In this document: in pieces, positions 10,001 to 55,003 of the stretch
Layout: each line of letters opens with the position of its first letter
Numbering within the stretch: position 1 is the first letter of the stretch
Source of the DNA: a virus
Length of the DNA stretch: 64,000 bases
Strand: one strand, 5' to 3'
Virus record (IMG/VR): IMGVR_UViG_3300021178_000001
Location: 50,256 to 114,255 of that record
Made by a program: the position numbers and the translations under genes
Notes under the pieces: generated by a model
Databases searched by the model: none
What the model saw: the letters and a program-made list of their open reading frames with translations, nothing else
Told to the model about the DNA's origin: nothing

Positions 10001-11623
10001 ATGCAAAAACAGATCATAAACGCCAAAGACTTCCTTCAGTCCAAGATGGACGGCATGGCTGAACTAGCCGACATCGTGAAGAAGACCTTGGGTCCCGGAG
10101 GTCTTCCCATAATTTTAGAACGAGTCGGGCAAGCGCTCGACGGTTCACCCTTGGGTCCAAAGATCACCAAGGACGGCGTCTCGGTAGCCGAGGAGTGCGC
10201 TTCTGAAGACAAGGCCAAAGACGTCGTGATTCAAGCCGTAAAGGCTATTTGCAGAAAAACTAACTCCGACGCCGGAGACGGCACGACTACGGCCATAGTT
10301 TTGGGCCAAGCCATTCTTCAAGAAACTCAAAAGATCTTGCAAGACGATCCTTCACTCAACCCACAACTAGTCAAGGAAGACATAGAACTGGTGGCTGCGA
10401 GAGTCATAGAGAAACTAAAGAGTTTAGCCGTTAAAGTGTCCGACATGAAGGCCATCGAGGAAGTTGCGACTATCTCAGCCAACGGCGACCGATCGATAGG
10501 TCAAGTCATTCGCATGGCCTTCGAGCACGTCGGAGCCGAGGGTGTCGTCACCGTGGACGAGGGTTCTGGATCAGAAGTTACTCTAGACGTAGTCGAGGGA
10601 TACCGCTTCAACCGTGGAGCTCAGTCTAGATCCGACTTCTTCAACAACAAGGACCGAACTCACTTCGAAGCTGAGAAAGCCGCGATCGTCTTTTTTGACG
10701 GCAAACTACTCAACTTCACCGACATTATCCCGACCATTCAGTTGTTGGCCGGAGTCGACAAGGAAACTGGACAAGCTTCCAAGAAGTTGCCGCCAGTCAT
10801 ATTTGTGGCCAACGAGTTCAGTCGCGACGTGATTCAGTTCATGCTGATCCAGAAGATGGAGCGCGGAATGCAGCTGTGCGCCATCGAGGGTCCTCACATG
10901 AGTCACGTGAGAACTGGATACTACGACGACATGGCGGCTTACACCGGTGGAAGTCGGTTGGGTAACGGAGCTAGGTCACTCTCGGCCATCATAGAAGAGG
11001 ACATCGGGTACATAGACAAGATCGTTTCGGACCAGTACAAAACGACTATGTACGAGGGCAACGGTTCGGAAGAGTCAGTCTTAGAGCGAGTAGATCAGTT
11101 GAAAGCTTTGAAGGCGAAAGCCGAGAGTCCGTACGACGCTCAAGTCGTGAACGACCGCATCGCCGCGCTCACTAACGGAATCGCGAAGATCGGCGTAGGC
11201 GGAGCCACAGAACTAGAGATCAAAGAGAAGTACGACCGCATCGAGGATGCTCTCAACGCCTCGCGAGCCGCGATTCAAGAAGGAGTGGTAGTCGGAGGCG
11301 GAGTAACCCTCCTAAGAATAGCCGTCGAGATGTCTCCCGATTCCGTCGGAGCTAAGATCATGCAAAAAGCTCTGCAGTCGCCGTTTCGTCAGATCTTGGA
11401 CAACATCGGTCTCAAAGAAGATGCAGTCAACGACATCGCGCTGTTAGTTTTAGAAGAAGAAGGAACCATCTACGACGCGCGGGATAAAAGAATTAAGAAC
11501 GCCTCGGAAGCTGGTATCATAGACCCAGTTAAGGTTACTCGAACGGCGTTGGAGAATGCTGTCAGTATCGCAGGTTTGCTGAGCACCGCGGGTGGTGCGA
11601 TTGTCTACAAAAAAGATAAGTAA
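10001..11623 (+). CDS. groEL: Chaperonin GroEL (phage-encoded)
   Basis: TLGPGG, ITKDGVSVA, AGDGTTTA, IEDALNA, GIIDPVKVTRTALENAVSIAG. Confidence 0.97.
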   Translation: MQKQIINAKDFLQSKMDGMAELADIVKKTLGPGGLPIILERVGQALDGSPLGPKITKDGVSVAEECASEDKAKDVVIQAVKAICRKTNSDAGDGTTTAIVLGQAILQETQKILQDDPSLNPQLVKEDIELVAARVIEKLKSLAVKVSDMKAIEEVATISANGDRSIGQVIRMAFEHVGAEGVVTVDEGSGSEVTLDVVEGYRFNRGAQSRSDFFNNKDRTHFEAEKAAIVFFDGKLLNFTDIIPTIQLLAGVDKETGQASKKLPPVIFVANEFSRDVIQFMLIQKMERGMQLCAIEGPHMSHVRTGYYDDMAAYTGGSRLGNGARSLSAIIEEDIGYIDKIVSDQYKTTMYEGNGSEESVLERVDQLKALKAKAESPYDAQVVNDRIAALTNGIAKIGVGGATELEIKEKYDRIEDALNASRAAIQEGVVVGGGVTLLRIAVEMSPDSVGAKIMQKALQSPFRQILDNIGLKEDAVNDIALLVLEEEGTIYDARDKRIKNASEAGIIDPVKVTRTALENAVSIAGLLSTAGGAIVYKKDK

Positions 11624-11643
11624 CTAGGATGGTTTTCGGCAGG

Positions 11644-11711
11644 TCCCTTAGGTCAGCAGTTCTAAGCACTTCTCCCCCCCTCCAAAGTGCAACTGGTCTA
11701 AGGGATTTTTT
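11644..11711 (+). terminator. Long branched hairpin plus U-tract after groEL
   Basis: TCCCTTAGGTCAG...CTGGTCTAAGGGA stem with inner GCACTT/AAGTGC stem, followed by T6. Confidence 0.6.
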
Positions 11712-11783
11712 ATTTCTAAAGTCCAATGATTCACCCAACTTTTTGATAAAATTTAGTATCTCGGTACATTACAGAGGACCTCA

Positions 11784-13559: not shown

Positions 13560-13566
13560 TTAATCT

Positions 13567-33110: not shown

Positions 33111-33722
33111 ATGGAAGATCGGGACAAGGATAAGTTCCACAAGATAGTACCGTCGCAAGGGACTGGACAAACTCACAGAGCCGTGTCTCTAGATGTCTTA
33201 AAAAGTTCTTTTATTGCTGACGGACTGTCTGCACAAGACATCTCGGACCGTTATTTTTTGTCGTTGGGTCAAGTTGAGAAGATTATAGAAGACCACAAAC
33301 TACCAGAGCTCAGACGCGAGTACATCCGCAACGGTTTGTCTAAGATTCAAGACCAACAAGTCAACCAAGCCCAGCGAATGCTAGACGTTGAACTTAACTT
33401 TAAGCGCATGCGCCTGATTCAGCTTGAAAAAGAGATCGAAGACTATATGGCCTACTACAGTAGGCACGGTGACTTCTACAAGCGTCATCCGACAACTGGA
33501 GAGATACTAAAAGACACAGACGGTATTTCTATGCAACTGCATATTCCAAACGTGTCGCGTGAGATCAAGGACTTGAAAGAGAGTGTCACGCTGTCAGACG
33601 GACTCAAGAAATTGTTGAGCAACTTGGACGAGATCATAAACGGAAAACCAAAGGGCGAAGCCGTGGGCGACAACGTAATCGACATGGACGAAATAGACGG
33701 TTTATTTAAGAAGAGAATATAG
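33111..33722 (+). CDS. Putative terminase small subunit
   Basis: N-terminal HTH-like segment, helical body, abuts terL. Confidence 0.5.
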   Translation: MEDRDKDKFHKIVPSQGTGQTHRAVSLDVLKSSFIADGLSAQDISDRYFLSLGQVEKIIEDHKLPELRREYIRNGLSKIQDQQVNQAQRMLDVELNFKRMRLIQLEKEIEDYMAYYSRHGDFYKRHPTTGEILKDTDGISMQLHIPNVSREIKDLKESVTLSDGLKKLLSNLDEIINGKPKGEAVGDNVIDMDEIDGLFKKRI

Positions 33723-35557
33723 TGGACATAGAAAAACTAAGCGCGAAACAATTCGCTGCTTTATTTAGCAAAATCCTAGAGCGTATAAAAGAAGATCCGA
33801 TCGAAAATTTCGTTCGCGCGTCTGGTTTTATGGCTTTGGAGCCGTCTCCTGCACAAGAAACGATCCTCAAGGTCGTGTTCCAGAAGAAACTCGATCCAGA
33901 CACTAAGAAGACAGTCCAAATTGAAGCCGAGACTCTAGAAGGCAAGTTTACTATTATCCACGCTTCCATGACGGAAGTAGAAATATACGAGTATCTCACG
34001 GACAAGAAATATGATTCCAGCAAGATCGAGAGCATCAAAGTCAACAAGATCAATTTGATTTGTGGACGACGTTCAGGCAAGACTTTGTTGTCCGCGGTCA
34101 TTTCTATTTATTGCGCGATCTCTAGTAACTGGCGTCCGTTCTTACAGAAGACTCCTTTTGCCACAGTTCTTATCATGTCTCACTCCCGTGAGTTCTCTGA
34201 CGAGGTTTTAGAGGTAATCAAGGGTTTAATAGAAAACTCACCCGTACTGTCACGCCTCATCAATCACGAAGCCAAACAAACGGCGTCAGCTATGAACCTC
34301 AGAGTACCGTGGGTCGTAAATGGTCTAATAGAGTATTCTAGAGTTCAGATCAAAGTGGGAGCTGCTTCAAGCAAGACTACTCGAGGAATTGCGGCGTGTG
34401 CCATCCTTTGCGACGAAATCGGGTACTGGGGCATCAGCGAGAACATGGTTGAGACAGACGTCAAGATCATGAAAGCCGTTCGACCCGCCATGAAGCAGTT
34501 CGGTAACTTAGCCATGTTGATCAAGTTGTCGTCTCCGGGAATCAAGCAAGGCATCTTGTACAACGAGTACCAAATGGACCGTGCCGGCACGTTGCCGGAC
34601 ACTTACGCGGTGTTTAAAGCTCCCAGTTGGATGATGAACACTATTTTGCCCAAAGAAGAGTTCATAGAAGAGTGGGTGTACGACCAAGACGGCTTCGACA
34701 CTGAGTACCGGTCCAACTTCGCCGATTCTTTGTCTAACTTTATTTCAAGCGAGTTACTCGACTTAGCCATGCAAAAAGGGGTAACATTCACTACTCCTTT
34801 AGAAACTAAAGAAGCCAAGTACTACGCCGCCATAGACGCCGCGTTCAAAGCAGACCGCTTCACGTTCACTCTAGTTTCTTCGAGAGAGAATCGAGTCACT
34901 CAGCACGTTATCATGGGATGGGAAGGAACTAAGAAAGACCCCGTCAAAGCTCACACCGTGGCTCAGTACATCAAAAACATACTGAAGAACTTCCCAGTAG
35001 ACCACGTAGCTGCAGATCAGTACGCTTTTCAACCTTTAAAAGAGATCTTCGACCAGTACGGAGTTGAGCTCAAAGAGTACACGTTTACTCCCACATTTAA
35101 GAAGAAAATTTACTTCAACTTGAAGAAACTCGTGCACTCGCAGCAAGTCGACCTACTCGATCATGAAGACCAGTTAAAAGAGATGAAAGCTCTCGTGGTT
35201 GAACAGTCCACCATGGGAACTATTAAGATTGGACACCCACCCGGAGGCCACGACGACTACGCCGACGCAGTTGCAGTCGCCACGTTCTTGGCGACCGAGG
35301 GACAAACTATCGGAGCTTTCGAATTTGAAGCCGTGTCCATGGTAAAGACTCACGGAATCAAGACCGACATCCACGGTACAGCTTTTACGGCGCCTAGTCC
35401 AGAAATGCTAGTTGCGACTGGACACCTAGGTAGTCACATAATGGATAACTCAGAGCTCTACGGAATTGACCCCTCGGACGGCAGGTTGAAGCGGAGAGAC
35501 GACTTCGACGACGCAGACGACGAGGACGAAGACGGAGCTTTCATCGACTTTGGGTGA
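33722..35557 (+). CDS. terL: Terminase large subunit
   Basis: GRRSGKT, ILCDE, LSSP, AIDAA, HDDYADA. Confidence 0.93.
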   Translation: MDIEKLSAKQFAALFSKILERIKEDPIENFVRASGFMALEPSPAQETILKVVFQKKLDPDTKKTVQIEAETLEGKFTIIHASMTEVEIYEYLTDKKYDSSKIESIKVNKINLICGRRSGKTLLSAVISIYCAISSNWRPFLQKTPFATVLIMSHSREFSDEVLEVIKGLIENSPVLSRLINHEAKQTASAMNLRVPWVVNGLIEYSRVQIKVGAASSKTTRGIAACAILCDEIGYWGISENMVETDVKIMKAVRPAMKQFGNLAMLIKLSSPGIKQGILYNEYQMDRAGTLPDTYAVFKAPSWMMNTILPKEEFIEEWVYDQDGFDTEYRSNFADSLSNFISSELLDLAMQKGVTFTTPLETKEAKYYAAIDAAFKADRFTFTLVSSRENRVTQHVIMGWEGTKKDPVKAHTVAQYIKNILKNFPVDHVAADQYAFQPLKEIFDQYGVELKEYTFTPTFKKKIYFNLKKLVHSQQVDLLDHEDQLKEMKALVVEQSTMGTIKIGHPPGGHDDYADAVAVATFLATEGQTIGAFEFEAVSMVKTHGIKTDIHGTAFTAPSPEMLVATGHLGSHIMDNSELYGIDPSDGRLKRRDDFDDADDEDEDGAFIDFG

Positions 35558-35623: not shown

Positions 35624-35646
35624 CTATTGAGATTTTGAGGGTAAGC

Positions 35647-37686
35647 ATGCCTGATAACAAAGATCTAAAACCGTCTATCTTCAGCAAGATGCTCGAAGCT
35701 GGCACTGCTTTACTGGACGCACAGATAGTCAAAGCCAAGTCAACCGTCATGAATCAGACCGTAGAAGACGACTTCTTTTACGCTAAAGCTGTGACCGAAG
35801 ACCCAAGCTACGTAGTCACTTCTTCTGGGTGGAAAGAGAAGCCAGGCAGACTAATGGACGGCCATTTGCGCCAAATGAGCATCCAGAACTCCGTGGTTGC
35901 GGCCATTATTCAGACCAGACAAAATGAAGTCGCCAACCACTCCAAGTTAGTTAAGTCAGAAAAAGAGTGCGGTTGGAGGATGTGCCTACGAGACGAAGAA
36001 GCTCTCTTAGAAAAGATCAAGGAAGAGATTTTAGCCGAAATGGAAGCCAGCGGGCAACTTCCTCCCGGAGCCGAACCTCCACAAGACTCAGGTGAATCTC
36101 CCGACTCCGAAGGACTGCTCAACGAAGACATTGGAGAACCAGTAGAAAAAGCTGATCCCGAAGTAGACGCTTCAGTGGACGCCGGAGAAGAGTCTCAGAC
36201 TGCTCACCCCGATGCCAGTTCAAAGTCTGACGACGAAGTGGAAGCGTACAACTTCGAACTTGAGCGCAAAGCTAAAGAGCGCTTGGAGACGAAGTTCAAG
36301 GACGCCAGGAAAAAAGCTCAAGACTATCTATTGAACTGCGGTCTCGTAGAGAACCGTCCGTTCGAAACTAAAAAGTGGAACTTTGACTCGGCGCTCAGAG
36401 CTTTAGTGCGAGATTCTTTAACTTACGATCGGTACACTACAGAAACTGTTCCAGATAGAGCAAAGCGACCGCACCACTGGTTTCCCGTAGACGCAGCCAC
36501 GATCAAGTACGCCGGACCCAACTTAAAGACTTACAAACAGATCGCCGACAACTTCATCAACTTGGACATTCTTTACCCAGAGAACCAAGCTATGGCGATG
36601 GAGAAACAGAAAGTTCTCGAACTAGACGAGAGCTTGATGGCTAAGAACGCCTACAAGTACGTTCAAATCATTCGAGGCAAGATTGAGCGCGCTTACACTG
36701 AAGACGAGCTCAAGATGGGGATTCGCAACATTACTACGGACATCTACGCCAACAGCTACGGAGTGTCAGAGTTAGAACTGGCCGTATCTCTCGTTACTGG
36801 TCACCTCAACGCCGAGTTCTACAACCAAGCTTATTTCACTCAGGGATTCTCAGCTAAAGGAATTCTCCACATCAAGGCGGCCATCAACCGTCGTAAACTA
36901 GAGACCGTGCGGCAACAGTGGCAGCACATGCTCAAGGGCGCGAGAAACTCCTTCCAGACCCCCATCTTCGCCGGCATGGAAGACGTGGCTTGGATTCCGC
37001 TGACTCAGAACCACAACGACATCGGTTTTGAGGGATGGATGCGGTACCTCATCAAGATGCTGTGCGCGATCTATCAAATTGACCCCTACGAGATCGGAAT
37101 CGGCTTCAAAGACGAGGGCACCGGCGGCGGAGGGATGTCCGGTGACAACACTAAAGAAAAACTAGAGCACTCCAAGAACAAGGGCTTGTACCCGCTGTTG
37201 AGACACGTCGAGAGCTTCGTAAACGAGAATATTCTAAAACCATTCGACGCTCGGTTCATAATGGAGTTCACCGGCATAACTGCCGAGTCTAGAGAAGAGT
37301 CTGTCAAGCGTCAAGACCTAGAACGCAAGTTCAAGAAGACGCTCAACGAGATTCGCGACGAGGACGGACTTCCTCCGTTGCCGGGCGGCGACGAGATCAT
37401 CCTTGGCCCCGAGTTCATGACTTGGTACTCTAAGTTTAGTCCCAAAGCTTTGGAACAGCAGCAACAGCAACTCGACGCGCAGAATCAATCCGCTGGCGGA
37501 GACACCGGACAAGATCCATTTGGAATGGATGCCATGCCAGAAGACTCTTTGATGAGCGGAGACAACTTAGAGTCGAACGCCATCAGTCCTGAACCGGCGG
37601 ACAAACCTGGGCAACCTCCAGTCAAGAAGTCTAGACCAATCGGGTCTAAACGAGTCAAGATCGAGTACTACACTCTCAGGAAATAA
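35647..37686 (+). CDS. Portal protein (SPO1/Twort-like)
   Basis: AIIQTR, VRDSLTYD, PVDAATI, YGVSELE, YFTQG..AKGIL, IDPYEIG, TLNEIR...GLPPLPGGD. Confidence 0.92.
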   Translation: MPDNKDLKPSIFSKMLEAGTALLDAQIVKAKSTVMNQTVEDDFFYAKAVTEDPSYVVTSSGWKEKPGRLMDGHLRQMSIQNSVVAAIIQTRQNEVANHSKLVKSEKECGWRMCLRDEEALLEKIKEEILAEMEASGQLPPGAEPPQDSGESPDSEGLLNEDIGEPVEKADPEVDASVDAGEESQTAHPDASSKSDDEVEAYNFELERKAKERLETKFKDARKKAQDYLLNCGLVENRPFETKKWNFDSALRALVRDSLTYDRYTTETVPDRAKRPHHWFPVDAATIKYAGPNLKTYKQIADNFINLDILYPENQAMAMEKQKVLELDESLMAKNAYKYVQIIRGKIERAYTEDELKMGIRNITTDIYANSYGVSELELAVSLVTGHLNAEFYNQAYFTQGFSAKGILHIKAAINRRKLETVRQQWQHMLKGARNSFQTPIFAGMEDVAWIPLTQNHNDIGFEGWMRYLIKMLCAIYQIDPYEIGIGFKDEGTGGGGMSGDNTKEKLEHSKNKGLYPLLRHVESFVNENILKPFDARFIMEFTGITAESREESVKRQDLERKFKKTLNEIRDEDGLPPLPGGDEIILGPEFMTWYSKFSPKALEQQQQQLDAQNQSAGGDTGQDPFGMDAMPEDSLMSGDNLESNAISPEPADKPGQPPVKKSRPIGSKRVKIEYYTLRK

Positions 37687-39604: not shown

Positions 39605-40053
39605 GTGATTTTTACGATAAAAAACAGTTGGACGAGGCGCAAGCTAAAATTCGTGAGAACGCAACTCCTCAACAGTTAAAGATGCTGGAGGATGCAGACG
39701 CTGCGTTTGATGAAGTTCAAGACGAATTCGTTCAACGTCAGAGCGAGGAAGATAAGCTCCGTAGATGGGCGTTTAATTTGTGTGGGTTCAACCTAGACAT
39801 GAGTGAGATTGAGCATCTAAGAGATGTAGCTAAAATGTTAACCCCGGGAACTACGACTACTTTCTTAGCCAAGCGTGGAGTTACGCAACTCTTTAAGACT
39901 GCTTTCGGCACCCTTGATCGAGTAGATCGTTATCTTCAAACTTTGGAACGCACGGTAATCGACATCACCAACAACAGTCAGTTTACACCGCTATCATTTT
40001 GTGATCTAATAAAGTTAGCTTTCAAACGTCTACTCAAGAGGAACCAACGATGA
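39601..40053 (+). CDS. Hypothetical protein
   Basis: ATGA-coupled ORF. Confidence 0.6.
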   Translation: MSDFYDKKQLDEAQAKIRENATPQQLKMLEDADAAFDEVQDEFVQRQSEEDKLRRWAFNLCGFNLDMSEIEHLRDVAKMLTPGTTTTFLAKRGVTQLFKTAFGTLDRVDRYLQTLERTVIDITNNSQFTPLSFCDLIKLAFKRLLKRNQR

Positions 40054-40676
40054 CCAACAAACGTAAGAACTCTAATCCAGTCGCAAAACAAGTTCACCCT
40101 CAACTGTCCTTCCAGCAGTTGTTGGCCGACGCTACCTTGGCTAAGTTTAGCGGATACATCAACGAACAAATTCAAGCGTTAGCTGAAAAACTCACGGAGT
40201 ACCAGGCCACACTGCAAAAGCAGTCTACACAGGACTTGATGACACGCATCGTCTCTTTGGAAGAGATTGTCATGCAGAATATTCCGACAGTCACTAAAGA
40301 AGTGTTGGCTTCTCAAGTTGCTACCGTAGAAGACCGCAGCGAGGGTCTCAACCAAGTCTCCGACGGTGAAGTTGAGCTCAACGATCGCGTACGCGTAGAG
40401 ATCAAGACTAAGACCACAGATCAGACTGATTTTCAAGGATCTTCTAGACTGCGCATCGACGGCGTCGGCAGCGGCAGTACTTTGGGTAAAGAACTCGAGG
40501 GATCTATCTTGGGTATGAAAGTTGGAGAAACTAAAGAAGTAAAGTTCGGCAAGGACGGAAACCTCATAGCTAGTATCTTGCTCAGCAGGACCTCGCGCGC
40601 TCCTAAGACAGAGTCTGCAGTGCCGCCTCCCCCTCAAACTGAAGGAGCTGCCAATGCCAGTGCAAATGCGGGGTAA
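40050..40676 (+). CDS. Protein with trigger-factor-type FKBP (PPIase) domain
   Basis: GEVELNDRVRVEI...FQG...VGSG...LEGSILGMKVGETKEVKF aligns by eye with the trigger factor PPIase domain. Confidence 0.7.
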   Translation: MTNKRKNSNPVAKQVHPQLSFQQLLADATLAKFSGYINEQIQALAEKLTEYQATLQKQSTQDLMTRIVSLEEIVMQNIPTVTKEVLASQVATVEDRSEGLNQVSDGEVELNDRVRVEIKTKTTDQTDFQGSSRLRIDGVGSGSTLGKELEGSILGMKVGETKEVKFGKDGNLIASILLSRTSRAPKTESAVPPPPQTEGAANASANAG

Positions 40677-40920
40677 GCGAGTGGGTGTCGAGAAACTAGG
40701 TAAGTCATCCAGTGACCCCAAGAGTCTCTTCGCCATGCCTGAAGACACCAGCGCCGTCGGAATTATACGCTACGTGGGCAGCGATCTAAAAGATCCAGAC
40801 CTCAAAGTCGGCACTAAAGTGTACTTTGGGGATCAGCGTCAGCAAATGAAGATCCACGGCATTGACATTCTAGTCATGGAAGAGACCAATGTGCTAGCCG
40901 TCGCTCAAGACGACACGTAG
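40654..40920 (+). CDS. groES: Co-chaperonin GroES-like protein
   Basis: KRVGVE...mobile loop...GIIRYVG...LKVGTKVYF...ILVMEETNVLA; 88 aa. Confidence 0.8.
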   Translation: MPVQMRGKRVGVEKLGKSSSDPKSLFAMPEDTSAVGIIRYVGSDLKDPDLKVGTKVYFGDQRQQMKIHGIDILVMEETNVLAVAQDDT

Positions 40921-40937: not shown

Positions 40938-41549
40938 ATGTCGAGAAAACAAGTGAGAGACGATCTTGAACGTTTTCATGACTATAGCATTTACTTGCCC
41001 TCTAGAACTATTTACATGGGATCGGAAGAGCATCACATAGAGCACGGTGACAGCGGTACGGACGGAGCCATGGCAGAGCGCACCGCTAAAAACCTACATA
41101 TACTAGACTCTATTTCCGCTGAACCGATCAACGTGGTGATGAACAACATCGGCGGAGACGAGTACGAGTGCTTTGCCATAATCGACGCGATCCGTCAGTG
41201 CCGTTCTAAAGTGATCATCACTGTAATGGGGCATGCAATGTCTGCGGGATCTCTGATACTTCAAGCGGCGGATGAGCGAGTAATGGCACCTTTGGCTGTA
41301 CAAATGATGCACTATGGAACTTGGGGTTGCATAGACCACTCCAAGACTTTTCAAAAGTGGGCCCGCGAGGGTAAGCGGATAGACGAGTGGATGGAGCAGT
41401 TTTATCTCGATAGAATTCACCTGAAGCACCCAGCATTCACTCTCAAGAAGTTGAAGAGCATGCTCGACCACGACACTTTCTTGACGGCCGAAGAGAGTGT
41501 AGCCTTGGGTCTATGCGACAGAGTTCTAGAATCAAGAGTCAAAGAGTGA
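40938..41549 (+). CDS. clpP: ClpP-family protease subunit
   Basis: NNIGG, GHAMSAGSLILQA (Ser), MMH (His), DTFLTAEESVALGLCD (Asp). Confidence 0.9.
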   Translation: MSRKQVRDDLERFHDYSIYLPSRTIYMGSEEHHIEHGDSGTDGAMAERTAKNLHILDSISAEPINVVMNNIGGDEYECFAIIDAIRQCRSKVIITVMGHAMSAGSLILQAADERVMAPLAVQMMHYGTWGCIDHSKTFQKWAREGKRIDEWMEQFYLDRIHLKHPAFTLKKLKSMLDHDTFLTAEESVALGLCDRVLESRVKE

Positions 41550-42316
41550 GCAACAAGAATCTAAAACAAATCTACGACCGCTCGTGTGAGCGTTCGATTC
41601 CAGAAAACAAGAGTAACTCTGGGCCAAGTATAAAACCGTCGATTTTAGGATCTCCGTGCTTGCGCAAAGTGTACTACTCGTACAACAAGGCGCCCGAAGA
41701 CATTCCGTTCCCACTGACTAGCTCAAGAATAACTAGTTTGGGAAATGCCATCGGCAAGATGTTGTTCGACGCCTTCGACAAGCAAGGCGTTGTCGTTAGA
41801 TTCAGAAAACCCGACGGCACTTATCATGTGGACCAGCACACTGGTGAAGTAGACTTCGAGTTTAGACTAACTTCACCTGAACTAGGAATTCGCCTTGGTA
41901 AGATTGACGCGGTTTTGATCTTAGACGACGGTTTGTGGTTGGGCGAGTTTAAGTCCATCAACGACCGCGGGTTCAAAGAACTCAAGGCTCCAAAAGGTGA
42001 CCACACTATACAAGGTGTACTGTACTTGTACTTGTTCAACAAAGCTCTCAAAGAAGGTGAGTTCAAGCACATTCCCGAATTAGCCAAGTTTGACAAGGCC
42101 AACGGCATCCGATTCCTTTATTACTACAAAGATAAGTCTGAACTTAAGGAATTTTTCATAACTACTGCGGACGAGTTGTTCAGACAAATTGTTCTGAAAA
42201 TTGAACAAGTTAAGTGGTTCTCGGAGAACAATCAGGTACCTCCTCCCACCGAAGACTACTGCAGGACTTGCGCCTATCAATTCAGGTGTCAAAAGAATAA
42301 AAAAGCAAACGACTAA
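41546..42316 (+). CDS. Cas4-like PD-(D/E)XK exonuclease with Fe-S cysteines
   Basis: PS...CLRK.YY, GKID, EFKS, Q...Y, CRTCAYQFRC; GTGA overlap with clpP. Confidence 0.85.
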   Translation: MSNKNLKQIYDRSCERSIPENKSNSGPSIKPSILGSPCLRKVYYSYNKAPEDIPFPLTSSRITSLGNAIGKMLFDAFDKQGVVVRFRKPDGTYHVDQHTGEVDFEFRLTSPELGIRLGKIDAVLILDDGLWLGEFKSINDRGFKELKAPKGDHTIQGVLYLYLFNKALKEGEFKHIPELAKFDKANGIRFLYYYKDKSELKEFFITTADELFRQIVLKIEQVKWFSENNQVPPPTEDYCRTCAYQFRCQKNKKAND

Positions 42317-42557: not shown

Positions 42558-43508
42558 ATGAAGAAACTACTCATATTGTCAGCAATTATGCTCGGATTAA
42601 TGGTGGCGCCGATCGCAGTAATGAAGGCTGGTAAGCTAGCAGCTCACGCTACGTCGACTGAAGCAGTCAACGAGAACTATCAAAAACAAGCGCTTCCTTC
42701 ACAAAATACGGCGCTGTCCGTAGACGAACCAAAAATTTTCGACGTACAAAAGACTATCAATCTAGAAGACGACGATACCGTAGTCCTCAAGGGTCCGGTG
42801 ACAGACGACTCTGTCTCGGCCGTTGAAAAGAGACTTCAAGAGATCAGTCTTAAGCTCAGCAAAAACGCCCACATACGATTGGTGCTCGACACACCCGGAG
42901 GCGACATCACGGCTGGATCCGACTTGATCGACTTTGCAAAAGCCTTGCCTCAAAAAGTAGACACCATTTCTTTGTTCGCGGCGTCCATGGGCTTCCAAAT
43001 CGCGGAAAATCTAAATACCAGGTACATCACTCGTACCGGAGTCTTGATGAGTCACCGAGCACGTCTCGGAGGCCTCGAAGGACAAATCAACGGCGAGTTC
43101 GAGAGTCGCTACAAGATGATTCGTCGTCAAGTAGACTTCATGGAACTCATCGCTTCTAAGAGGATGGGCATCGACCTAGAGACGTACCGCAAAAAGATCG
43201 TGAATGAACTCTGGGTGTACGGCTTCGACGCTCTAGAAGAGAGAGTAGCAGACGAGACGGTTGCCGTGACTTGCGGCAAGTCGATGACTGGCTCATACTC
43301 TCAAGTGTTCAATACGATGATGGGTCCAGTTAAAGTCACTTTTAACAAGTGCCCACTCATCAAAGCTCCCGAATCGGTAGAACTTAGTCAGATCGTGATC
43401 GGAGAACAAGACAAGGTTGAAGCAGCCGTTCGCATGGCGTTCAACAACCAAAAGAAATTCGTGGACGAGTACATCACCACTAATCGTTTCTTCACCATTT
43501 TCAAGTAA
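42558..43508 (+). CDS. Exported ClpP-like serine protease
   Basis: N-terminal signal/TM segment; LDTPGG, AASMG, MSH. Confidence 0.78.
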   Translation: MKKLLILSAIMLGLMVAPIAVMKAGKLAAHATSTEAVNENYQKQALPSQNTALSVDEPKIFDVQKTINLEDDDTVVLKGPVTDDSVSAVEKRLQEISLKLSKNAHIRLVLDTPGGDITAGSDLIDFAKALPQKVDTISLFAASMGFQIAENLNTRYITRTGVLMSHRARLGGLEGQINGEFESRYKMIRRQVDFMELIASKRMGIDLETYRKKIVNELWVYGFDALEERVADETVAVTCGKSMTGSYSQVFNTMMGPVKVTFNKCPLIKAPESVELSQIVIGEQDKVEAAVRMAFNNQKKFVDEYITTNRFFTIFK

Positions 43509-44031: not shown

Positions 44032-44580
44032 TTGGATTATATGCAAATTAGTAAGTCATTATCTAGACATAGAGCTAGAAGAGCATGGGAAAGTTATTAT
44101 AAAGCATCAATCTTGCCAGGAATGCATCTCCATCACAGAGACAGTAATTCTAGAAATAATAGCATTGAAAATTTAGTAGTTTGTACTCCAGAAGAACACG
44201 TAGAGTTTCATAGACAATTAGGTCATAAAATTCAACAAAATTATATATTTAAAGCAAACTTTTTTGCCGACATGACGGTAGAAGAGCAAGAAGCATTCAG
44301 ACGGAAAGCAAGTGAATATTCTAAACGTAGGATAAATTTAAGTAGATCAGATCAAACTAGACTATTGTGTAAACTCAATAGTGCTCTTCAAGCTAACTCA
44401 CTTGAAATGATAGACGTTGAAACTGGTAAAATTGTAAGTGAGTTCTTTAGCATTAAAGAAGCAGCTGAAAAACTTGACATTCAACGTGCTCATATACGGC
44501 GAGTCATAACCGGCGAGCGCAAAGGTTGGAGAGGCTATGTCTTTAGATACAAAGAGTTCAGAAATGCAGGACACCTTTAA
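44032..44580 (+). CDS. HNH homing endonuclease with NUMOD1 domain
   Basis: HHRDSNSRNNSIENL; EFFSIKEAAEKL...GYVFRY. Confidence 0.85.
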   Translation: MDYMQISKSLSRHRARRAWESYYKASILPGMHLHHRDSNSRNNSIENLVVCTPEEHVEFHRQLGHKIQQNYIFKANFFADMTVEEQEAFRRKASEYSKRRINLSRSDQTRLLCKLNSALQANSLEMIDVETGKIVSEFFSIKEAAEKLDIQRAHIRRVITGERKGWRGYVFRYKEFRNAGHL

Positions 44581-45625
44581 GTTTGTAATTCCCGCAGACC
44601 TTGAAAAAGGCAAAGACGGCGAATGGAAGATTAGTGGTCTAGCTTCAACTCAGAAGGTAGACCTGCAAGGTGAAACCATAATTCAAAAAGGTATCGACTT
44701 AACTCCAATTGATAAGAAAAAAGGAGTGATTAATTTCGATCATCAACGCGGACCTGAAAACACTATAGGTCTTTTAGACGGGTACACTCGCACCGAAAAA
44801 GGACTTTTCATCGAAGGCCGTCTCTTTAAGAATCATACTAAGGCCAAAGCAGTGTATGAGATTATGTCTTCTTTGGGTGAGAACGATCGCGGTCGTGTAG
44901 GTCTTAGTGTAGAAGGTAAAATATTAAAACGCAGTTTGACTAATCCAGCAATAATTGAGAGATGCCAGATAAATGCAGTTGCTGTTACTCTTTCACCTGT
45001 AAATTCAGAGACTTTTGCAGATTTAGTTAAGTCTATGAACTCGGCCGATTCTGTGGAGTTCAACGCCGAAGAGCAAATCTCTGAGACTAATCCCAACGAA
45101 GCCACCTTTACTGCTGACCAAGTCATGGCTATCGTTCAAAAAGCTCTAGCCGTCGGTGGCCCCGCAGCGGTTGGTCCTCCGAACGCTAAGACAGGCGGTA
45201 ACGCTCTTCAGCCCTCCGACATGTCGGCTGAGCCAAAGAAGAAGAAAAAGCTCAAGAAGATGGTCTCCGGCATGTACAAGTCGAGTCTAGTCAGTATCCT
45301 CGACAAACTGCAGGTTTTATATCCCCAGTGCTCTCGCTCAGAGATCTGGGAAGCTGTAAAAGACCGGCTAGACACTAAGTTTGAGATGGAAAAAGGCTTG
45401 CGCATCAAGAATACTTCGGGCAAAGAGCGCGAGCACAAGTTGTACGAAGACGCCCGCCAGCGCGGCGACTACGAGACCAATAAAGATAAGTCGAGAGCTG
45501 AACTTAACCAACTGGCCGAGCAGTCGGGCGCCGGCAAGCACGACAAGCAAAAGATTAGGGCTCAACGCGACGCCGCAATTCAAGTCGGTGAGCGAGACCA
45601 CGTCAGACCCAACGTAAAAGGTTAA
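44537..45625 (+). CDS. Prohead protease with C-terminal extension
   Basis: GLAST..VDLQGE, NFDH, GLSVEG, VAVT..PVN. Confidence 0.88.
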   Translation: MSLDTKSSEMQDTFKFVIPADLEKGKDGEWKISGLASTQKVDLQGETIIQKGIDLTPIDKKKGVINFDHQRGPENTIGLLDGYTRTEKGLFIEGRLFKNHTKAKAVYEIMSSLGENDRGRVGLSVEGKILKRSLTNPAIIERCQINAVAVTLSPVNSETFADLVKSMNSADSVEFNAEEQISETNPNEATFTADQVMAIVQKALAVGGPAAVGPPNAKTGGNALQPSDMSAEPKKKKKLKKMVSGMYKSSLVSILDKLQVLYPQCSRSEIWEAVKDRLDTKFEMEKGLRIKNTSGKEREHKLYEDARQRGDYETNKDKSRAELNQLAEQSGAGKHDKQKIRAQRDAAIQVGERDHVRPNVKG

Positions 45626-46010: not shown

Positions 46011-46874
46011 ATGAGCACTGCACAAGTATCGCAAACTGAAGATTTGAACAAGTCGATCGACGCTTTATTGGACGAAGTGTTCAGCGACGTAGTAGAAAAG
46101 GGATCTCCCCTAGACCTAGCAGCCGACAACTCCAAGACTGCCGACGAAGCCGTCAACAAGGCTCCGAAGATGCAGATGGACGATGCTCGCGGCGCTGGTC
46201 GCCCCAAGCAAATTTCTGACGTTCCTCAAAACGACACCGACGGCCGCCGTGCTTCCGAGTACGACGACGCCATCGCAGAAGCTTCTGGCGCCAAAGAGCC
46301 GGACGAAGCCAAGAAGCAAGCTAAGGCTATCGATCAAGTCTCTTCCGAAGGTCACCTCAAGGACGGAAGTAAGGCTCCTCGAATGGCTCCTTTCAAGAAG
46401 TCTGAAGTTCAAATTTCTGAAGAAGAGTACCAAGAGTATGAAGAATTTAAAAAAGCCAAAGTCGAAGCAACTCAAAAGAAAGTCAAAGAAGAAGAACTTC
46501 GCAAAACTGAAGACTCTCGCAAGCAAAATGAAGAACTCATTAAGTCGGCGGTTGGGGCAGCCACTTCTAAACTTGCTAAAGAAAATGATGAGCTTCGTAA
46601 GTCTATCCTAGAGACGCAGAGTCTCATCAAGGCTATGGCTTCTCAGCCGATGACTTCCAAGTCTATCACCAACATCCAAGTTCTCGAGAAGAGTGCTCGC
46701 CCAGAAGAAAAAGGCAACGAGTCTTTCTCTAAGTCCGACGTGTTGGACGCCGCCTTCGAACTCGCTAAAGCCGGCAAGATCAGCTCGGAAGTTGTCTCTG
46801 AGATTGAGATGACGAATCGTTGTTCTGATCAAGGCGCTCGTGCCACCATCGAGAAATACTTAGAAAGTCGTTAA
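46011..46874 (+). CDS. Capsid scaffolding protein
   Basis: Acidic coiled-coil protein between protease and capsid; repeated LxKS motifs. Confidence 0.7.
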   Translation: MSTAQVSQTEDLNKSIDALLDEVFSDVVEKGSPLDLAADNSKTADEAVNKAPKMQMDDARGAGRPKQISDVPQNDTDGRRASEYDDAIAEASGAKEPDEAKKQAKAIDQVSSEGHLKDGSKAPRMAPFKKSEVQISEEEYQEYEEFKKAKVEATQKKVKEEELRKTEDSRKQNEELIKSAVGAATSKLAKENDELRKSILETQSLIKAMASQPMTSKSITNIQVLEKSARPEEKGNESFSKSDVLDAAFELAKAGKISSEVVSEIEMTNRCSDQGARATIEKYLESR

Positions 46875-48084: not shown

Positions 48085-48641
48085 TTGTTGTGCTTTCTGT
48101 GATTGTCTTCAGCCCACAGTGGTTGCAGGTTCGTGTAGTGCGAAGCTTTGGCGAACTCAACCGGATCCATCAAGTTGAACTTACTCAAGGCTTTGACGTG
48201 GTCCACGTGCCAGCCAGTCTTCGACCAATTCTCCCAGGTCATTCCGGGTTGAAATCGAGACTCTAGGTGTCGCTTCAACTCTTCGACCGAGCACCCAAGT
48301 GCCGTTAAAACCTTGCCGTGTCGCAAGAACTTTGTAATTCTGCTTCTAAGAATATCGGCTAATTTAAAGTTTACGTCAGTGTGGTACCTGCGGTATTTAT
48401 TTGCGTTTATCTTACTCCGGTTAGCAAAGTTCCATCGCTTTGACTTGTTTAAAACTCGTTCTTTATTCCTTAAGTACCACTCGGCTTTGCGCTGACTCTC
48501 CAAGTCTTTGTTCTTAGAAGCATAGTCGTGCGAAGCTTTTCTACTACACTCTTTGCACAAATTCTGTAGCCCGTCTTTGTTAGCTTTAGACTTACTGAAC
48601 TCCGCGAGTGGCTTCTCTATGCATTTCTTACACTTTTTCAT
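48081..48641 (-). CDS. HNH endonuclease (family A, first of trio)
   Basis: CKKC/CKEC; WHVDHVK, NLQPLWAEDN; TACGAT-6 nt-ATG. Confidence 0.88.
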   Translation of the reverse strand: MKKCKKCIEKPLAEFSKSKANKDGLQNLCKECSRKASHDYASKNKDLESQRKAEWYLRNKERVLNKSKRWNFANRSKINANKYRRYHTDVNFKLADILRSRITKFLRHGKVLTALGCSVEELKRHLESRFQPGMTWENWSKTGWHVDHVKALSKFNLMDPVEFAKASHYTNLQPLWAEDNHRKHNK

Positions 48642-48784: not shown

Positions 48785-50203
48785 ATGTCTAATATCATCG
48801 ATCAAGTTGCAAATGACCCGTCCATGACTGGATTTGGCTCTCATTCTGCAGCACAAATGGAAGCTTTGCAAAAAGCTCTCGCAATCTCTCAAAACTACGG
48901 CACGACTGCACCAAATTCCTTGGCTGGTGGTTCTGCTCTCGCAGTCGAAGACCTCGACCGCACCTTGAAACTCGTAACGCACGGACTCGAACACTTGAAG
49001 CTGTGGAAAGACATCATCAAGGAAAAGATTCCTCAAACTGTGCACGAGTTCAACGTTCAGAACTCGTACGGCCAAGAAGTTAGCCCGTTCTTCTCAATGG
49101 GCGGAACTCCTCAGTCGACCGACGCAAACTATGCTCGTGAAGTGATCCAAGTGAAGTATCTCGGAACGCAGGGACAAGTTCAGCACAACTTGACCTTGAT
49201 CCAAGCTGCTCACGGCCCAGTGATCGCTCGCGAAGTGAAGAACAAGACGATCGAACTGTTGGCACGCAACGAGCGCGCGATGTTCGAAGCCGACTCCTCC
49301 ATCAACCCGTTGGAGTACGACGGCATCTTCGCTCAAGTCGCTTTCAAAGAGCAACAAGCAGCGTTTCAGTCGACGGCTTTCGCCGGCTACGACGCAGCTG
49401 GTTCCAGCTCCAGTGTCATCCTAGACATCCGCGGTCAGTTCGACGACGTGGTTGCCGAGCAAATGGCTCTCAAGAACGTGAACAACTTCGGTATGGCCAT
49501 GGACTGCTACCTCGGTACAGACGTCCACTCGAAGTTCTCTCGTGACTTCTACAACAAACAGCGCACGTTGCCGGGTGAGACCCTCACTTCCGGTAACCGC
49601 GTGAAGGAGCACACTGGAACGCTTGACTTCCGGTTCAAGCCCAGTTTGTTCAATCGTCCCAGAATCGCTCCCCTAAGTGTGTCCGTTTCCGCTTCTGCGG
49701 CTCCTACACTCGCCAGCATGCTGACCCCTTCCGACGCTGCTTCCGAGTTTGGTGCTTCCGACGCCGGTACTTACGGCTACAAAGTGTCTCTCGTCTACAT
49801 GGACGGCGAGACTGCTCCTTCGTCTGAAATTTCGGGCGCAGTGGCTGCGGGCGACAAAGTGACGATTCAGATCTCCTACGTGGGAGCTCCTCTCTACGCC
49901 AACATCTTCCGTTCTCCCTTGAACGGTGCCGGCGCTGGTTGGGCATTCATCGGCAGGATCGCTCTGTTGTCCTCTGGCTCGGCAATGAACGTGGACTACA
50001 ACGCTCAACTCCCTGGTTCGGCGAAGGCGTTCTTGCTCATGCACGACAGCGACGCACTGTGTTGGAAACAACTCGGTTCGATGATCAAGTACGACCTCGC
50101 AGTAACTGACACCAGCTACCGCTGGTTGCAGCTGTTGTACGGCACGCCTCTCGTGGCTGCTGCTCGTAAGCAGACCATCGCAGAGAACTTGATCGTTTCA
50201 TAA
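48785..50203 (+). CDS. Major capsid protein (SPO1/Twort-like)
   Basis: GGSALAVEDLD.TLK, KYLG, E..MF.AD....LEYDGI; followed by strong terminator. Confidence 0.9.
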   Translation: MSNIIDQVANDPSMTGFGSHSAAQMEALQKALAISQNYGTTAPNSLAGGSALAVEDLDRTLKLVTHGLEHLKLWKDIIKEKIPQTVHEFNVQNSYGQEVSPFFSMGGTPQSTDANYAREVIQVKYLGTQGQVQHNLTLIQAAHGPVIAREVKNKTIELLARNERAMFEADSSINPLEYDGIFAQVAFKEQQAAFQSTAFAGYDAAGSSSSVILDIRGQFDDVVAEQMALKNVNNFGMAMDCYLGTDVHSKFSRDFYNKQRTLPGETLTSGNRVKEHTGTLDFRFKPSLFNRPRIAPLSVSVSASAAPTLASMLTPSDAASEFGASDAGTYGYKVSLVYMDGETAPSSEISGAVAAGDKVTIQISYVGAPLYANIFRSPLNGAGAGWAFIGRIALLSSGSAMNVDYNAQLPGSAKAFLLMHDSDALCWKQLGSMIKYDLAVTDTSYRWLQLLYGTPLVAAARKQTIAENLIVS

Positions 50204-51409: not shown

Positions 51410-51414
51410 GGTGT

Positions 51415-51938: not shown

Positions 51939-51945
51939 GCTTCCC

Positions 51946-52191: not shown

Positions 52192-52364
52192 CTAGTCACT
52201 AAAACCGGATTCTCGATGTCAAACAGCTTCTTCTCAAGCTCGTGGATCTTGACTATGTAATGGAACTCGGCGGTCTCAACCAGTTTGAGTAACTCTTTAC
52301 GGTTTGGAGCTTGAGCCATGTGGGTGTACATGAACTCGGCGACCTGTTCTACGAGGCTCTTCAT
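52176..52364 (-). CDS. Hypothetical protein
   Basis: ATGA overlap with ligase. Confidence 0.6.
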   Translation of the reverse strand: MKSLVEQVAEFMYTHMAQAPNRKELLKLVETAEFHYIVKIHELEKKLFDIENPVLVTRWDDL

Positions 52365-53521
52365 AAATCTTCCCTGAAGCGAACTACGCGACCGTGGCGC
52401 GGAACGTGGTTTGCGTTAGTGAACCCCATGAACTGGACTGTCACGACGCGTCCGATTAGCAACTCTTTTTGCTTGAAGTACGTGCGCAGCTCTTCGAGCG
52501 GCGCATTCTTGACCGCCTTGAAAGTCTCTCCGTTGCCGGCGCGACACACGAACATGGCTAGACCCTTAAACTTTCCGGAGCCTTCCGTGACGTCCACGAT
52601 CTCAAACTCGGCGTCGTCGAACTTCTTCATCTTGAGTAGCCCAGAAGAACGTGACGTCGGGTGACTCTTGTACGGAGCGTCGGCGGTGCGAAGCATTAGA
52701 CCCTCGTAACCGTCCGACAGAACCGTGTCAAAGGCTACTTGAACTTCGTCTTCGGAGTCCACCTTCATCGTAGGAACATTGATGAGAACGTCTTCAACTT
52801 CCGACGCACGTAGAGAAAATACGTTGTTTAAACGGAAATTTCGTTCTTTAAAATTTACTTCTTCCGAAGGCATGTCGTAAATATAGTACTGTACCTTCTC
52901 GTGGCCCTCGACCGGAGCCTTGGGTGTTATGAGCTTAGTGATCTGCTCAAAGTTGTGCTTGTACTCGTGGTTGTACAACTCACCGTCGAGGACGGCGTCG
53001 GCTCCGCCAGTCAGTCGCTCTACAGCTCTGCAGACGTGAGGCACCGACAAGATCGGCTTGCGAGTGCGAGACCACAGAGTGCAAACTCCTTTCTTGACCA
53101 CGGCGATGCACCGGTGACCGTCAAACTTGGGTTGTATGAACACGGGATACTCGATTTTGTCGGCTCGATCCTTGAACTTCTGGGCGAGCATGGGGAAGAT
53201 CCCGCCTTGTACCAAGACGTCTACCTCACCGGCTAAAGCGGCTTCCTGGGACTCAACGTAACCCTTCTTTTTCTTCTGGAGTTCCCACTTTGACTGGGCC
53301 TCATTCAAGGCTTGCTGTTTTAGTGAGGTCTCGTTGGCTTTACCGATGTTTTTACCGCCCAGAATGGTCTCTCTAGCTTCTTGCATCTTGCCGCCCACTT
53401 TACCGTACGTAGTCACTACGTCAAAGAACAAGCGATCGACGTTGTTGGGTTCAACTCTTACTTCCCACGACTTGAGACCACCGCCAGAGTTTTTAGCGAA
53501 TAAAATAGGAAAAGTTTGCAT
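52361..53521 (-). CDS. ATP-dependent DNA ligase
   Basis: QPKFDGHRC, LDGELY, YIYD, EGLMLR, LLKMK. Confidence 0.93.
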   Translation of the reverse strand: MQTFPILFAKNSGGGLKSWEVRVEPNNVDRLFFDVVTTYGKVGGKMQEARETILGGKNIGKANETSLKQQALNEAQSKWELQKKKKGYVESQEAALAGEVDVLVQGGIFPMLAQKFKDRADKIEYPVFIQPKFDGHRCIAVVKKGVCTLWSRTRKPILSVPHVCRAVERLTGGADAVLDGELYNHEYKHNFEQITKLITPKAPVEGHEKVQYYIYDMPSEEVNFKERNFRLNNVFSLRASEVEDVLINVPTMKVDSEDEVQVAFDTVLSDGYEGLMLRTADAPYKSHPTSRSSGLLKMKKFDDAEFEIVDVTEGSGKFKGLAMFVCRAGNGETFKAVKNAPLEELRTYFKQKELLIGRVVTVQFMGFTNANHVPRHGRVVRFREDL

Positions 53522-53570
53522 CGAGTCCTCCTAGTGAAATAATAATACGTTCGAGACTAAAAGTAAAACG

Positions 53571-53798: not shown

Positions 53799-53902
53799 GT
53801 TTGGACCCCTCAAGTTTGGTATACTACTATTGTAATACGCTACGAACGTGAAGCACAAGACTTATATCATAATAAACTGTAACAAATTCAAGGGGATGTA
53901 TC

Positions 53903-54211
53903 ATGAACGAGCTAGACCAAGAACTAGAAATGACCAAACTAGAGCGTTACCTCAAGCGCGAGGGAAGGCAAGACTTCGTGGACGAGATGCACCGCGCGAG
54001 TCCGGTTCAACTCGATTCTAGGATGCTGGGACTCACCAAACATCGCGAGGAGATCGACACTACTCGCAACAACGACGAGGACCTTAAGAAAGCCAAGAAC
54101 GAAGCCAAAGCCCTCGGAGCAACTTATCGTGAACAAACCAAGATGAACAAGAAACTCACTAGATTGGTGGCTTTGCTGATGGCGGAAAAAGGTGTGCCGC
54201 TGAGCAAGTGA
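53903..54211 (+). CDS. Hypothetical coiled-coil protein
   Basis: AAGGGG RBS. Confidence 0.65.
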   Translation: MNELDQELEMTKLERYLKREGRQDFVDEMHRASPVQLDSRMLGLTKHREEIDTTRNNDEDLKKAKNEAKALGATYREQTKMNKKLTRLVALLMAEKGVPLSK

Positions 54212-54582
54212 GGATAGCGATAGTAGCCAGCAACCCGTCGCACTTGGGACCGAACTCGCCGGCTAAAAAAGTGTTCCAACGATGGATGTTCACGATGGGA
54301 GTAGACGTTCCTTACGTCTTTCTCAACGTGTCCAACTCTGTCACTCCGAACAACAGGCCGCTCAAGAAGTCTGAGTACGAACTAGTTAGACTCAAGAACG
54401 ATCTAAGGTTCTGCAGCAAGTTCTTGGCTCTCGGAAACACGGCTTCGGACGCTCTCACGAGACTCCACGTTTCGCACTTCAAGCTGCCGCACCCGAGTCC
54501 GAAGAACCGCAAGTTGAACGACCATAGTCAGGTCGTCAAACTGTTGGCGGAATGCAAGGTATACTTAGACTACCGCTTCTGA
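54208..54582 (+). CDS. Minimal uracil-DNA glycosylase superfamily protein
   Basis: ASNPS, ALGNTA, LPHPS motifs; 124 aa. Confidence 0.72.
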   Translation: MRIAIVASNPSHLGPNSPAKKVFQRWMFTMGVDVPYVFLNVSNSVTPNNRPLKKSEYELVRLKNDLRFCSKFLALGNTASDALTRLHVSHFKLPHPSPKNRKLNDHSQVVKLLAECKVYLDYRF

Positions 54583-54594
54583 TACGATTTCTTT

Positions 54595-55003
54595 GGGTCC
54601 GACAGGTTTCGACTGGGAGCCATGTTCTTTGAAATGCGAGTCTCGGATGGTAGAAGGCCGAGTCATCAAACTACCAATCAATAACTGCCAACGACAACGT
54701 TGTTAGTTTGAATGCTTTCCGCGCTCGCAAGAACGTAGTTAGCCTTCAACACGCCGCCTAATAAGCTGCGCGGAGCCGTCTGAGCTCTGTTAAATAAGAA
54801 AGACAAAACCGAATGCCTCTGAATCGGTAGCTGTAATCAGAAATGTTCTACCAGTAACACAAAGACTGGTTGGTGGAGGTGGCGCAGAGCGAAAGCCGAG
54901 TGTTACCCTAAGTCTTGTCAACTGACTCAAATCGTTGAACACACTCGTAGACTTTCAAGAAGATGCTTTCAGGACCCGGGTTCAAGTCCCGGCGGGTCCA
55001 CCA
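54595..55003 (+). ncRNA. ssrA: tmRNA (one-piece), tag (A)ANDNVVSLNAFRARKNVVSLQHAA
   Basis: Acceptor stem GGGTCCG/CGGGTCC with G3.U70 and encoded ACCA; T-arm CCGGG-TTCAAGT-CCCGG; helix 2 pairings; pseudoknot 1 (CTCGG/CCGAG, TGGTAG/CTACCA); ATAACT-GCC resume site at 54687; TAA TAA at 54759. Confidence 0.96.

Follow-up and report, generated by a model that had tools for sequence, protein, structure and literature searches.

Does a phage that carries genes for a chaperonin, a co-chaperonin, an FKBP-type protein, two ClpP-like proteases and a transfer-messenger RNA (tmRNA) run a protein quality-control pathway of its own, or do these genes serve separate ends? The question is raised by a 64,000-nucleotide stretch of viral DNA (hereafter the window, whose positions are used throughout) from IMG/VR record IMGVR_UViG_3300021178_000001. 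The window covers bases 50256-114255, the second half, of a complete 114,255-bp record, for which direct terminal repeats and 100% completeness are given. A preliminary description of this DNA had joined these genes into a single line in which new proteins are folded, stalled ribosomes are rescued by the tmRNA and the tagged products are destroyed, with SmpB and ClpX borrowed from the host. In the present analysis the folding arm held as a conserved gene set and the rescue-and-destroy arm did not, since the tmRNA is patchy among relatives and the ClpP-fold proteins are non-canonical. We judge it probable, if well short of certain, that the window combines a lineage-core set of virion-building helpers with an unrelated accessory tmRNA, rather than a single pathway. 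The genes in question are the following.

10001..11623, + strand: GroEL, a group I chaperonin (PF00118, NF009487, phrog_5725)
40050..40676, + strand: FKBP-fold protein, with a long N-terminal helix (residues 21-77) and then an FKBP domain (about residues 100-183, nt 40347-40598)
40654..40920, + strand: divergent GroES/Cpn10 homologue, overlapping the FKBP-fold gene by 23 nt
40938..41549, + strand: ClpP-fold serine protease 1 (ClpP1; PF00574, 83.4 bits; no hydrophobic segment)
42558..43508, + strand: ClpP-fold serine protease 2 (ClpP2; PF00574, 45.2 bits)
54595..55003, + strand: intact one-piece tmRNA (RF00023; tag reading frame 54687-54764)

Relatives were collected by scanning viral contigs twice with the major capsid protein, which gave 41 related loci (57-87% identity), including seven records that are 82-100% complete; each component was searched in 18 whole related records. 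Co-occurrence across relatives had been set beforehand as the test of a joint pathway, and it separated the genes. GroEL was found in all seven relatives of 82-100% completeness, the FKBP-fold gene in 13 of 13 related records, and the GroES-like gene in 13/13 records of a first survey and 5/5 of a second (17 distinct records, as G003 was present in both). ClpP1 was present in 12/13 records and ClpP2 in 9/13, the latter being genuinely absent from some contigs that span the site, and at least two PF00574 genes were found in each of five relatives that are 93-100% complete. The tmRNA is missing from 17 of the 18 whole records, including the five relatives with a completeness of 90% or more, all of which keep the rest of the set; the sole carrier is the relative G004. 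ARAGORN, run on 40 of the related loci over 10 kb on each side of the capsid gene, returned no tmRNA. GroEL, the GroES-like gene and the FKBP-fold gene are thus co-conserved and the tmRNA is patchy and independently distributed, which argues against a line in which all of them act together.

The tmRNA itself is as intact as first described, with a match to Rfam RF00023 that spans model positions 1-374 of 374 and scores 103.3 bits (gathering score 47). Its ends, 5' GGG and 3' GGGTCCACCA, form the G3-U pair, and the CCA end is present. The tag given by ARAGORN has 24 residues, ANDNVVSLNAFRARKNVVSLQHAA, and is followed by two stops (TAATAA). It holds NVVSL twice, in different codons, and ends in HAA. 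Such a length is suggestive of an origin by internal duplication from a tag of some 12 residues.

At its site the gene has no counterpart. In L004, the closest relative that covers this place (80% capsid identity), the genes orthologous to those at 53903 and 55022 sit 90 bp apart and the site is empty; in other relatives the 54208 gene is present and the tmRNA absent. The tmRNA of G004 lies on the other side of GroEL, on the opposite strand relative to GroEL and the head genes, and is flanked by small open reading frames (ORFs) that have no homologue in the window genome. It is about 50% identical to the tmRNA of the window and carries an unrelated 12-residue tag, AESNDFAFQNAA. These differences in place, tag and sequence point to separate gains, and the two tmRNAs accordingly look like two independent acquisitions as far as their sequences can tell. 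Separate gains agree with published phage surveys (PMC9004378, PMC4131195), and phage tmRNAs are sporadic, being present in 2.3% of phage genomes and 'common but not defining' within a group (PMC9004378). As the tmRNA appears to be a recent one-off and the chaperone and protease genes are old residents of the head block, they do not make up one quality-control pathway.

An origin of the tmRNA as an attachment-site remnant was rejected, the gene being full length and the complete genome having no detectable integrase. Its source was sought in genome contigs with a 25-nt pattern of the 3' end, which gave 33 matches and no tmRNA (32 ordinary tRNA-Met or tRNA-Ala genes and one locus without a tRNA gene), and in metagenome contigs with degenerate patterns of the tag peptide, which gave 0 and then 7 chance matches, none with a tmRNA. 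No tRNA genes were found in the complete genome, where the tmRNA is the sole tRNA-like gene. The preliminary description had noted that neither SmpB nor ClpX is in the window, and their absence extends to the whole genome: SmpB (PF01668) gave no match at E <= 1 across the complete sequence, and no gene for a ClpX/ClpA-type, AAA_2 or AAA ATPase was found in it.

The conserved genes other than GroEL, by contrast with the tmRNA, are part of the head region, whose other members are listed here.

33722..35557, + strand: terminase large subunit (phrog_2, phrog_9)
35635..37686, + strand: portal protein (phrog_11117, 5e-38; phrog_12), which begins the conserved block holding the cluster
41513..42316, + strand: Cas4-like PD-(D/E)XK nuclease (PF12705, 25.7 bits; phrog_1706, 4e-22), conserved between the two ClpP-fold genes
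44537..45625, + strand: probable S78/S77-type prohead protease (phrog_1028, 1e-36), directly before scaffold and capsid in relatives
46011..46874, + strand: putative scaffold protein, named from position only (the protease-capsid interval in all loci), with no family match
48785..50203, + strand: major capsid protein, distantly SPO1-like (phrog_752, 4e-54)

The order portal, o302, o177, (o150), FKBP-fold, GroES-like, ClpP1, Cas4-like, ClpP2, o153, protease, scaffold, capsid recurs in about 30 related contigs, with a variant in one relative in which ClpP1 is relocated upstream of the FKBP-fold gene. A scan for promoters and terminators gave counts near those of shuffled sequence and is thus uninformative on the existence of an operon; a strong terminator-like hairpin follows the capsid gene. 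The 302-residue gene after the portal gene is split in two relatives by what may be an intein or homing element, an insert of about 1.3 kb in L029 (2107-4297) and of about 1 kb in L078 (1072-2976).

GroEL, whose identification held on all family scores with cut-offs for the broad family, reaches 134.7 bits with PF00118 (cut-off 34.3), 398.8 bits with NCBIfam NF009487 (cut-off 352) and E 1e-108 with phrog_5725; it stays below the strict equivalog TIGR02348 (378.4 vs 582.1 bits). Its GDGTTT nucleotide-binding motif (A91-G92-D93-G94-T95-T96-T97) is invariant among four GroEL orthologues. The gene lies about 29 kb from the FKBP/GroES/ClpP cluster, among genes of replication and nucleotide metabolism: a helicase upstream, and ribonucleotide reductase, dCMP deaminase, a DnaB-like protein and Pol A downstream. 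Directly after the ribonucleotide reductase, the single ORF at 13567-14796 combines two domains, a TnsA-like endonuclease N-domain (25.6 bits, slightly below the cut-off) and a dCMP/cytidine deaminase domain (55.3 bits). In the relative G007 (L035:238-2835) an in-frame insert divides GroEL: one frame of about 866 residues matches both residues 1-95 and residues 93-538 of the window protein, and the insert contains a LAGLIDADG_3 domain (28 bits). This insert is a probable intein at the GDGTTT ATP-binding motif.

What the two ClpP-fold proteins are bears directly on which reading is to be preferred. ClpP1 was first described as clpP, and its membership of the ClpP family and fold stood, by its PF00574 score and by a catalytic triad in which Ser102 and His125 are invariant and Asp is present in 13 of 15 orthologues (Asn in the other two). 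Its identity as canonical ClpP did not stand, with 44.4 bits against the cut-off of 308.6 for the equivalog TIGR00493. Among PHROGs the highest score is that of phrog_94, head maturation protease (122 bits; the 'ATP-dependent protease' PHROG reaches 54), and among NCBIfam models that of NF045542, ClpP-related head maturation protease (89.9 bits). Matches to ClpP models begin at positions 25-47 (Pfam 25, TIGR00493 37, PRK00277 42), and therefore the axial-loop N-terminal region is not detectably conserved. Homologues were found in 1148 cultured-phage records; the best-listed matches from small phages mostly carry the label Clp protease or capsid/head maturation protease, and several of them directly follow the portal gene, at about 3.4-4.2 kb of the genome. 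By these family comparisons ClpP1 is not a canonical ClpP and fits the ClpP-related phage head-maturation proteases best.

The second ClpP-like protease, at 42558, was borne out by its PF00574 score and by an AlphaFold2 (AF2) model with a ClpP fold (predicted local distance difference test, pLDDT, 81.9), whose core superposes on ClpP with a root-mean-square deviation (rmsd) of 2.2-2.6 A and a TM-score of about 0.8 (target-normalised). Ser143 and His166 are invariant, and the Asp position aligns with an invariant Glu217. Cys239 and Cys265 are also invariant, and the protein has an extra C-terminal beta/helical domain. Its scores with TIGR00493 (32.8 vs 308.6) and NF045542 (33) are low. A hydrophobic N-terminus is conserved (Kyte-Doolittle 19-residue maximum 2.59, residues 4-22), which suggests that ClpP2 is membrane-anchored or exported. 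A third ClpP-family gene was observed in the relative G016, far from its head genes (C1:97387-97866).

These data can be set against an account in which the conserved set acts on the proteome of the infected cell in general, with ClpP1 joining host ClpP rings or docking ClpX or ClpA, and with the tmRNA as an optional part. The best solved relative of ClpP1 is indeed the Pseudomonas aeruginosa ClpP2 (E 2.4e-15; other ClpPs 4e-9 or weaker), which is active only in a mixed complex with P. aeruginosa ClpP1, through which ClpX binds (PMC12451819). The order from the FKBP-fold to the ClpP-fold genes is reminiscent of tig-clpP-clpX in bacteria, a neighbourhood whose members are reported to cooperate functionally (PMC7804408); the phage already has a probable dedicated prohead protease of S78/S77 type, and GroEL is found among replication genes and not late ones. 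However, ClpP1 evolves fast, with 22-61% identity among orthologues where the capsids share 57-87%, a divergence that one would not expect of a subunit that has to pack into a conserved ring of the host. Its scores are higher on phage head-protease families than on ClpP families, an N-terminal ClpP-like segment was not detected, and the genes stay within the portal-to-capsid block in nearly all relatives. We regard such a takeover, the main rival to the reading preferred here, as unlikely.

The two small proteins upstream of ClpP1 raise a further doubt, namely that they are not working chaperones. The GroES-like protein scores 19.8 bits with PF00166, under the Pfam gathering score of 21.1, and this family is carried by 13 of 62 clusters of its orthologues in metagenomes. 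The homology named at first as groES is confirmed by a clade profile: built from 16 orthologues and compared with the PDB, it returned only GroES/Cpn10 chains at E <= 0.21 (best E 2e-7), the sole other row being at E 1.4. The profile matches over its full length (positions 7-84), including the mobile-loop region. In one relative (L025) a TAA stop lies between the GroES-like and ClpP1 genes. When the complex of phage GroEL and the GroES-like protein was predicted, the score was 0.33 against 0.12 for the best of three controls, with contacts that agreed by at least 52% between runs and a partner pLDDT of at least 72. Of 80 solved complexes, 58 reach the mark used for such predictions, as do 2 of 110 mismatched pairs; scores of 0.60 or less include only 7 of those 80 solved complexes, yet both of the passing mismatches. 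The predicted complex is therefore weak support for a pairing of the two phage proteins, and the pass may reflect a memory of solved GroEL-GroES complexes.

The protein at 40050-40676 scores 17.9 bits with PF00254, below the cut-off of 21.1. Its AF2 model, made with 14 orthologues (pLDDT 80.8), consists of a 57-residue helix and an FKBP domain, and Foldseek matches it to trigger factor (E 1.7e-4), SlyD (TM-score 0.61, target-normalised) and further FKBPs. Of the earlier assignment as a trigger-factor-like prolyl isomerase, the FKBP fold was upheld by the model; a prolyl isomerase activity is putative. Identity as trigger factor was rejected: TIGR00115 gives 25.4 bits against 180.2, over model positions 117-208 of 410 only, and there is no ribosome-binding N-domain, the N-terminus being one long helix. 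Searches of cultured phages by tblastn detected no homologue of either the GroES-like or the FKBP-fold protein.

It could be argued that both proteins are structural parts of the prohead, namely scaffold or core components in which these folds have been reused, ClpP1 being the true capsid protease and the phrog_1028 protein having some other role. The 57-residue helix resembles coiled-coil scaffold proteins, both proteins fall below their family cut-offs, and the phrog_1028 protein has no match among Pfam families or PDB sequences. Against this, GroEL is universally kept alongside the GroES-like gene, and the clade profile covers the whole of GroES with its mobile loop. The phrog_1028 match is strong and the gene always abuts scaffold and capsid; its ESM Atlas neighbours are Peptidase_S78/S77 clusters (0.91-0.92). 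Such a structural role is very unlikely.

The single line first proposed, in which the FKBP-fold protein and GroEL/GroES fold nascent chains, stalled ribosomes are rescued by the tmRNA and host SmpB, and tagged products are degraded by phage ClpP and host ClpX, can count in its favour that all the named genes occur in one complete genome, that both phage tags end in AA, the feature on which ClpX recognition of the ssrA degron chiefly depends, that the triad of ClpP1 is kept and that G004 has the cluster plus a tmRNA. We give it little credence, since beyond the empty sites and the two unlike tmRNAs it meets a ClpP1 that fails the equivalog and lacks a detectable axial-loop region, a ClpP2 that is apparently membrane-anchored or secreted, and a distribution of GroEL, cluster and tmRNA over three different gene blocks. 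A variant of similarly slight probability makes the conserved set and GroEL a protein-turnover module, in which ClpP1 in or with the host ClpP ring would re-aim ClpXP and tmRNA-bearing members would feed phage tags into the same protease.

We therefore return to the reading of a virion-building helper set with a separate tmRNA. The conserved set most likely serves the folding, assembly and trimming of virion proteins. Phage GroEL and its GroES-like lid, helped by the FKBP-fold protein, would fold or assemble abundant virion proteins such as the capsid or portal protein; ClpP1 would be a stand-alone serine protease for the trimming of head or portal-associated proteins, after the manner of the ClpP-related head-maturation proteases found in many phages, and ClpP2 would act at or beyond the membrane. 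The accessory tmRNA would have been inserted recently between two small genes, in the variable island between the capsid and tail genes, and would have to use host SmpB and host alanyl-tRNA synthetase. Its AA-ending tag would be read by host proteases. The tmRNA has no evolutionary link to the phage ClpP-fold genes.

Several points weigh against this reading. In the complete relative G015 the GroES-like gene and both ClpP-fold genes (C1:9493-12000) lie tens of kb from the protease-scaffold-capsid block, and GroEL sits in a different expression block. The head block also holds the Cas4-like nuclease and homing-type nucleases, so position alone is no proof of a role in head assembly, and core genes of a lineage co-occur trivially, which is no proof that they work jointly. 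With a probable canonical prohead protease in the same region, there is no evident need for ClpP1. ClpP1 itself is under the cut-off of NF045542 (89.9 vs 120), and its closest solved relative is a cellular paralogue.

The head region has further features. HNH endonuclease genes are found at 44032-44580, before the prohead protease, and at 50306-51409, after the capsid gene; on the other strand, 52361-53521 encodes a DNA ligase, and the capsid-to-tail interval is a variable island. The gap of 1.9 kb between scaffold and capsid is filled by three antisense ORFs (205, 199 and 186 aa; 46871-48641, - strand), for which Pfam gave nothing at E <= 0.001; related loci covering this gap have only about 80-185 bp there. 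One more gene had been counted with the pathway as a DnaJ-type zinc finger:

3148..3528, - strand: small protein with paired CxxCxGxx zinc-ribbon motifs (CPVCDGTG and CPTCRGKR, the second departing from CxxCxGxG)

This label was withdrawn, as the protein has no J domain and two Cys motifs instead of four, and its scores are far below the family cut-offs (PF00684, 21.2 vs 32.7; TIGR02349, 20.4 vs 377); it also lies outside the range 10001-55003 to which the pathway had been assigned.

As for the genome itself, the runs listed as containing the window stretch are three soil metagenome DNA runs, with no RNA run among them, and one related 114-kb contig is recorded from Tara. The major capsid protein is only about 30% identical to the capsids of Bacillus SPO1-type phages (e.g. 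SPO1, CampHawk), and neither the chaperone/protease cluster nor the tmRNA has a DNA match to cultured phages; the genome therefore belongs to an uncultured lineage, which is widespread and has genomes of 100-120 kb. Constant in this lineage are a GroEL of its own, a GroES that has diverged strongly, an FKBP-fold protein and at least two ClpP-fold proteases beside a probable prohead protease of the standard kind. With this outcome, the unsupported if attractive story of a private 'fold, rescue, destroy' line need not be taken further, and other questions arise: for which virion proteins a chaperonin pair of the phage's own is needed, why three protease genes lie near the head genes, and what role the apparently membrane-anchored ClpP-fold enzyme has.

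Compared with known systems, none of the components is of a kind new to phages when taken singly, and ClpP-related head proteases as well as phage tmRNAs are common knowledge. Less usual are the constant trio of FKBP-fold, GroES-like and ClpP-fold genes that follows the portal gene, the three protease genes in a single head region and a ClpP-fold protein with a putative membrane anchor. ClpP1 is like the NF045542/phrog_94 head proteases in its Ser-His-Asp residues and in its location downstream of the portal gene; it differs from them in its score below the cut-off, in not adjoining scaffold or capsid, and in being accompanied by a probable S78/S77-type prohead protease and by a paralogue with a predicted anchor. 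With P. aeruginosa ClpP2 (PDB 7m1l, 9ndj) it has the ClpP fold and the triad in common. In contrast to cellular ClpP, the phage has no Clp ATPase, the N-terminal region of ClpP1 is unmatched, and ClpP2 adds a putative anchor and a C-terminal domain.

The FKBP domain of the window is of the trigger factor/SlyD type, and its gene lies just upstream of the ClpP-fold genes, as in tig-clpP-clpX; unlike trigger factor, the protein lacks a ribosome-binding N-domain and C-terminal arms, and unlike in that bacterial neighbourhood, a GroES-like gene stands between the FKBP-fold and ClpP-fold genes and clpX is absent. In Mip/FkpA the layout of a long helix and an FKBP domain aligns end to end with the window protein, with a high rmsd. 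Phage tmRNAs have been described in the mycobacteriophage Bxz1 group, Bacillus phage G, OM43 phage Melnitz and Stenotrophomonas phage Marzo (PMC4131195, PMC9004378, PMC8928761). The tmRNA of the window resembles them in being complete, in occurring in a lytic-type phage without SmpB and in being sporadic in its group; it differs in its unusually long tag of 24 residues, with the internal NVVSL repeat and the HAA end, and is of the one-piece form. No sequence similar to it was found in cultured phages.

The closest parallels to the folding genes are T4 gp31, RB49 CocO and gp146 of Pseudomonas phage EL, with which a phage supplies chaperonin parts for virion folding, as proposed here. T4 gp31 serves virion protein folding with host GroEL, and the phage GroEL gp146 is reportedly able to work without a co-chaperonin. 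In the window, unlike in the T4 gp31 and EL gp146 systems, homologues of both GroEL and GroES are phage-encoded; in common with such systems, the GroES-like gene lies with head genes, and GroEL is a full-length group I protein with GDGTTT. A cultured counterpart is provided by Vibrio phage K469, whose annotated GroEL lies near ribonucleotide reductase genes, as in the window genome. A 'hypothetical protein' of this phage (OZ195916.1 20160-20441; L081:8161-8442), beside a translation-repressor gene, is an unannotated Cpn10 homologue (32.5 bits, above the cut-off), so that by sequence homology phages with both a GroEL and a GroES homologue exist in culture.

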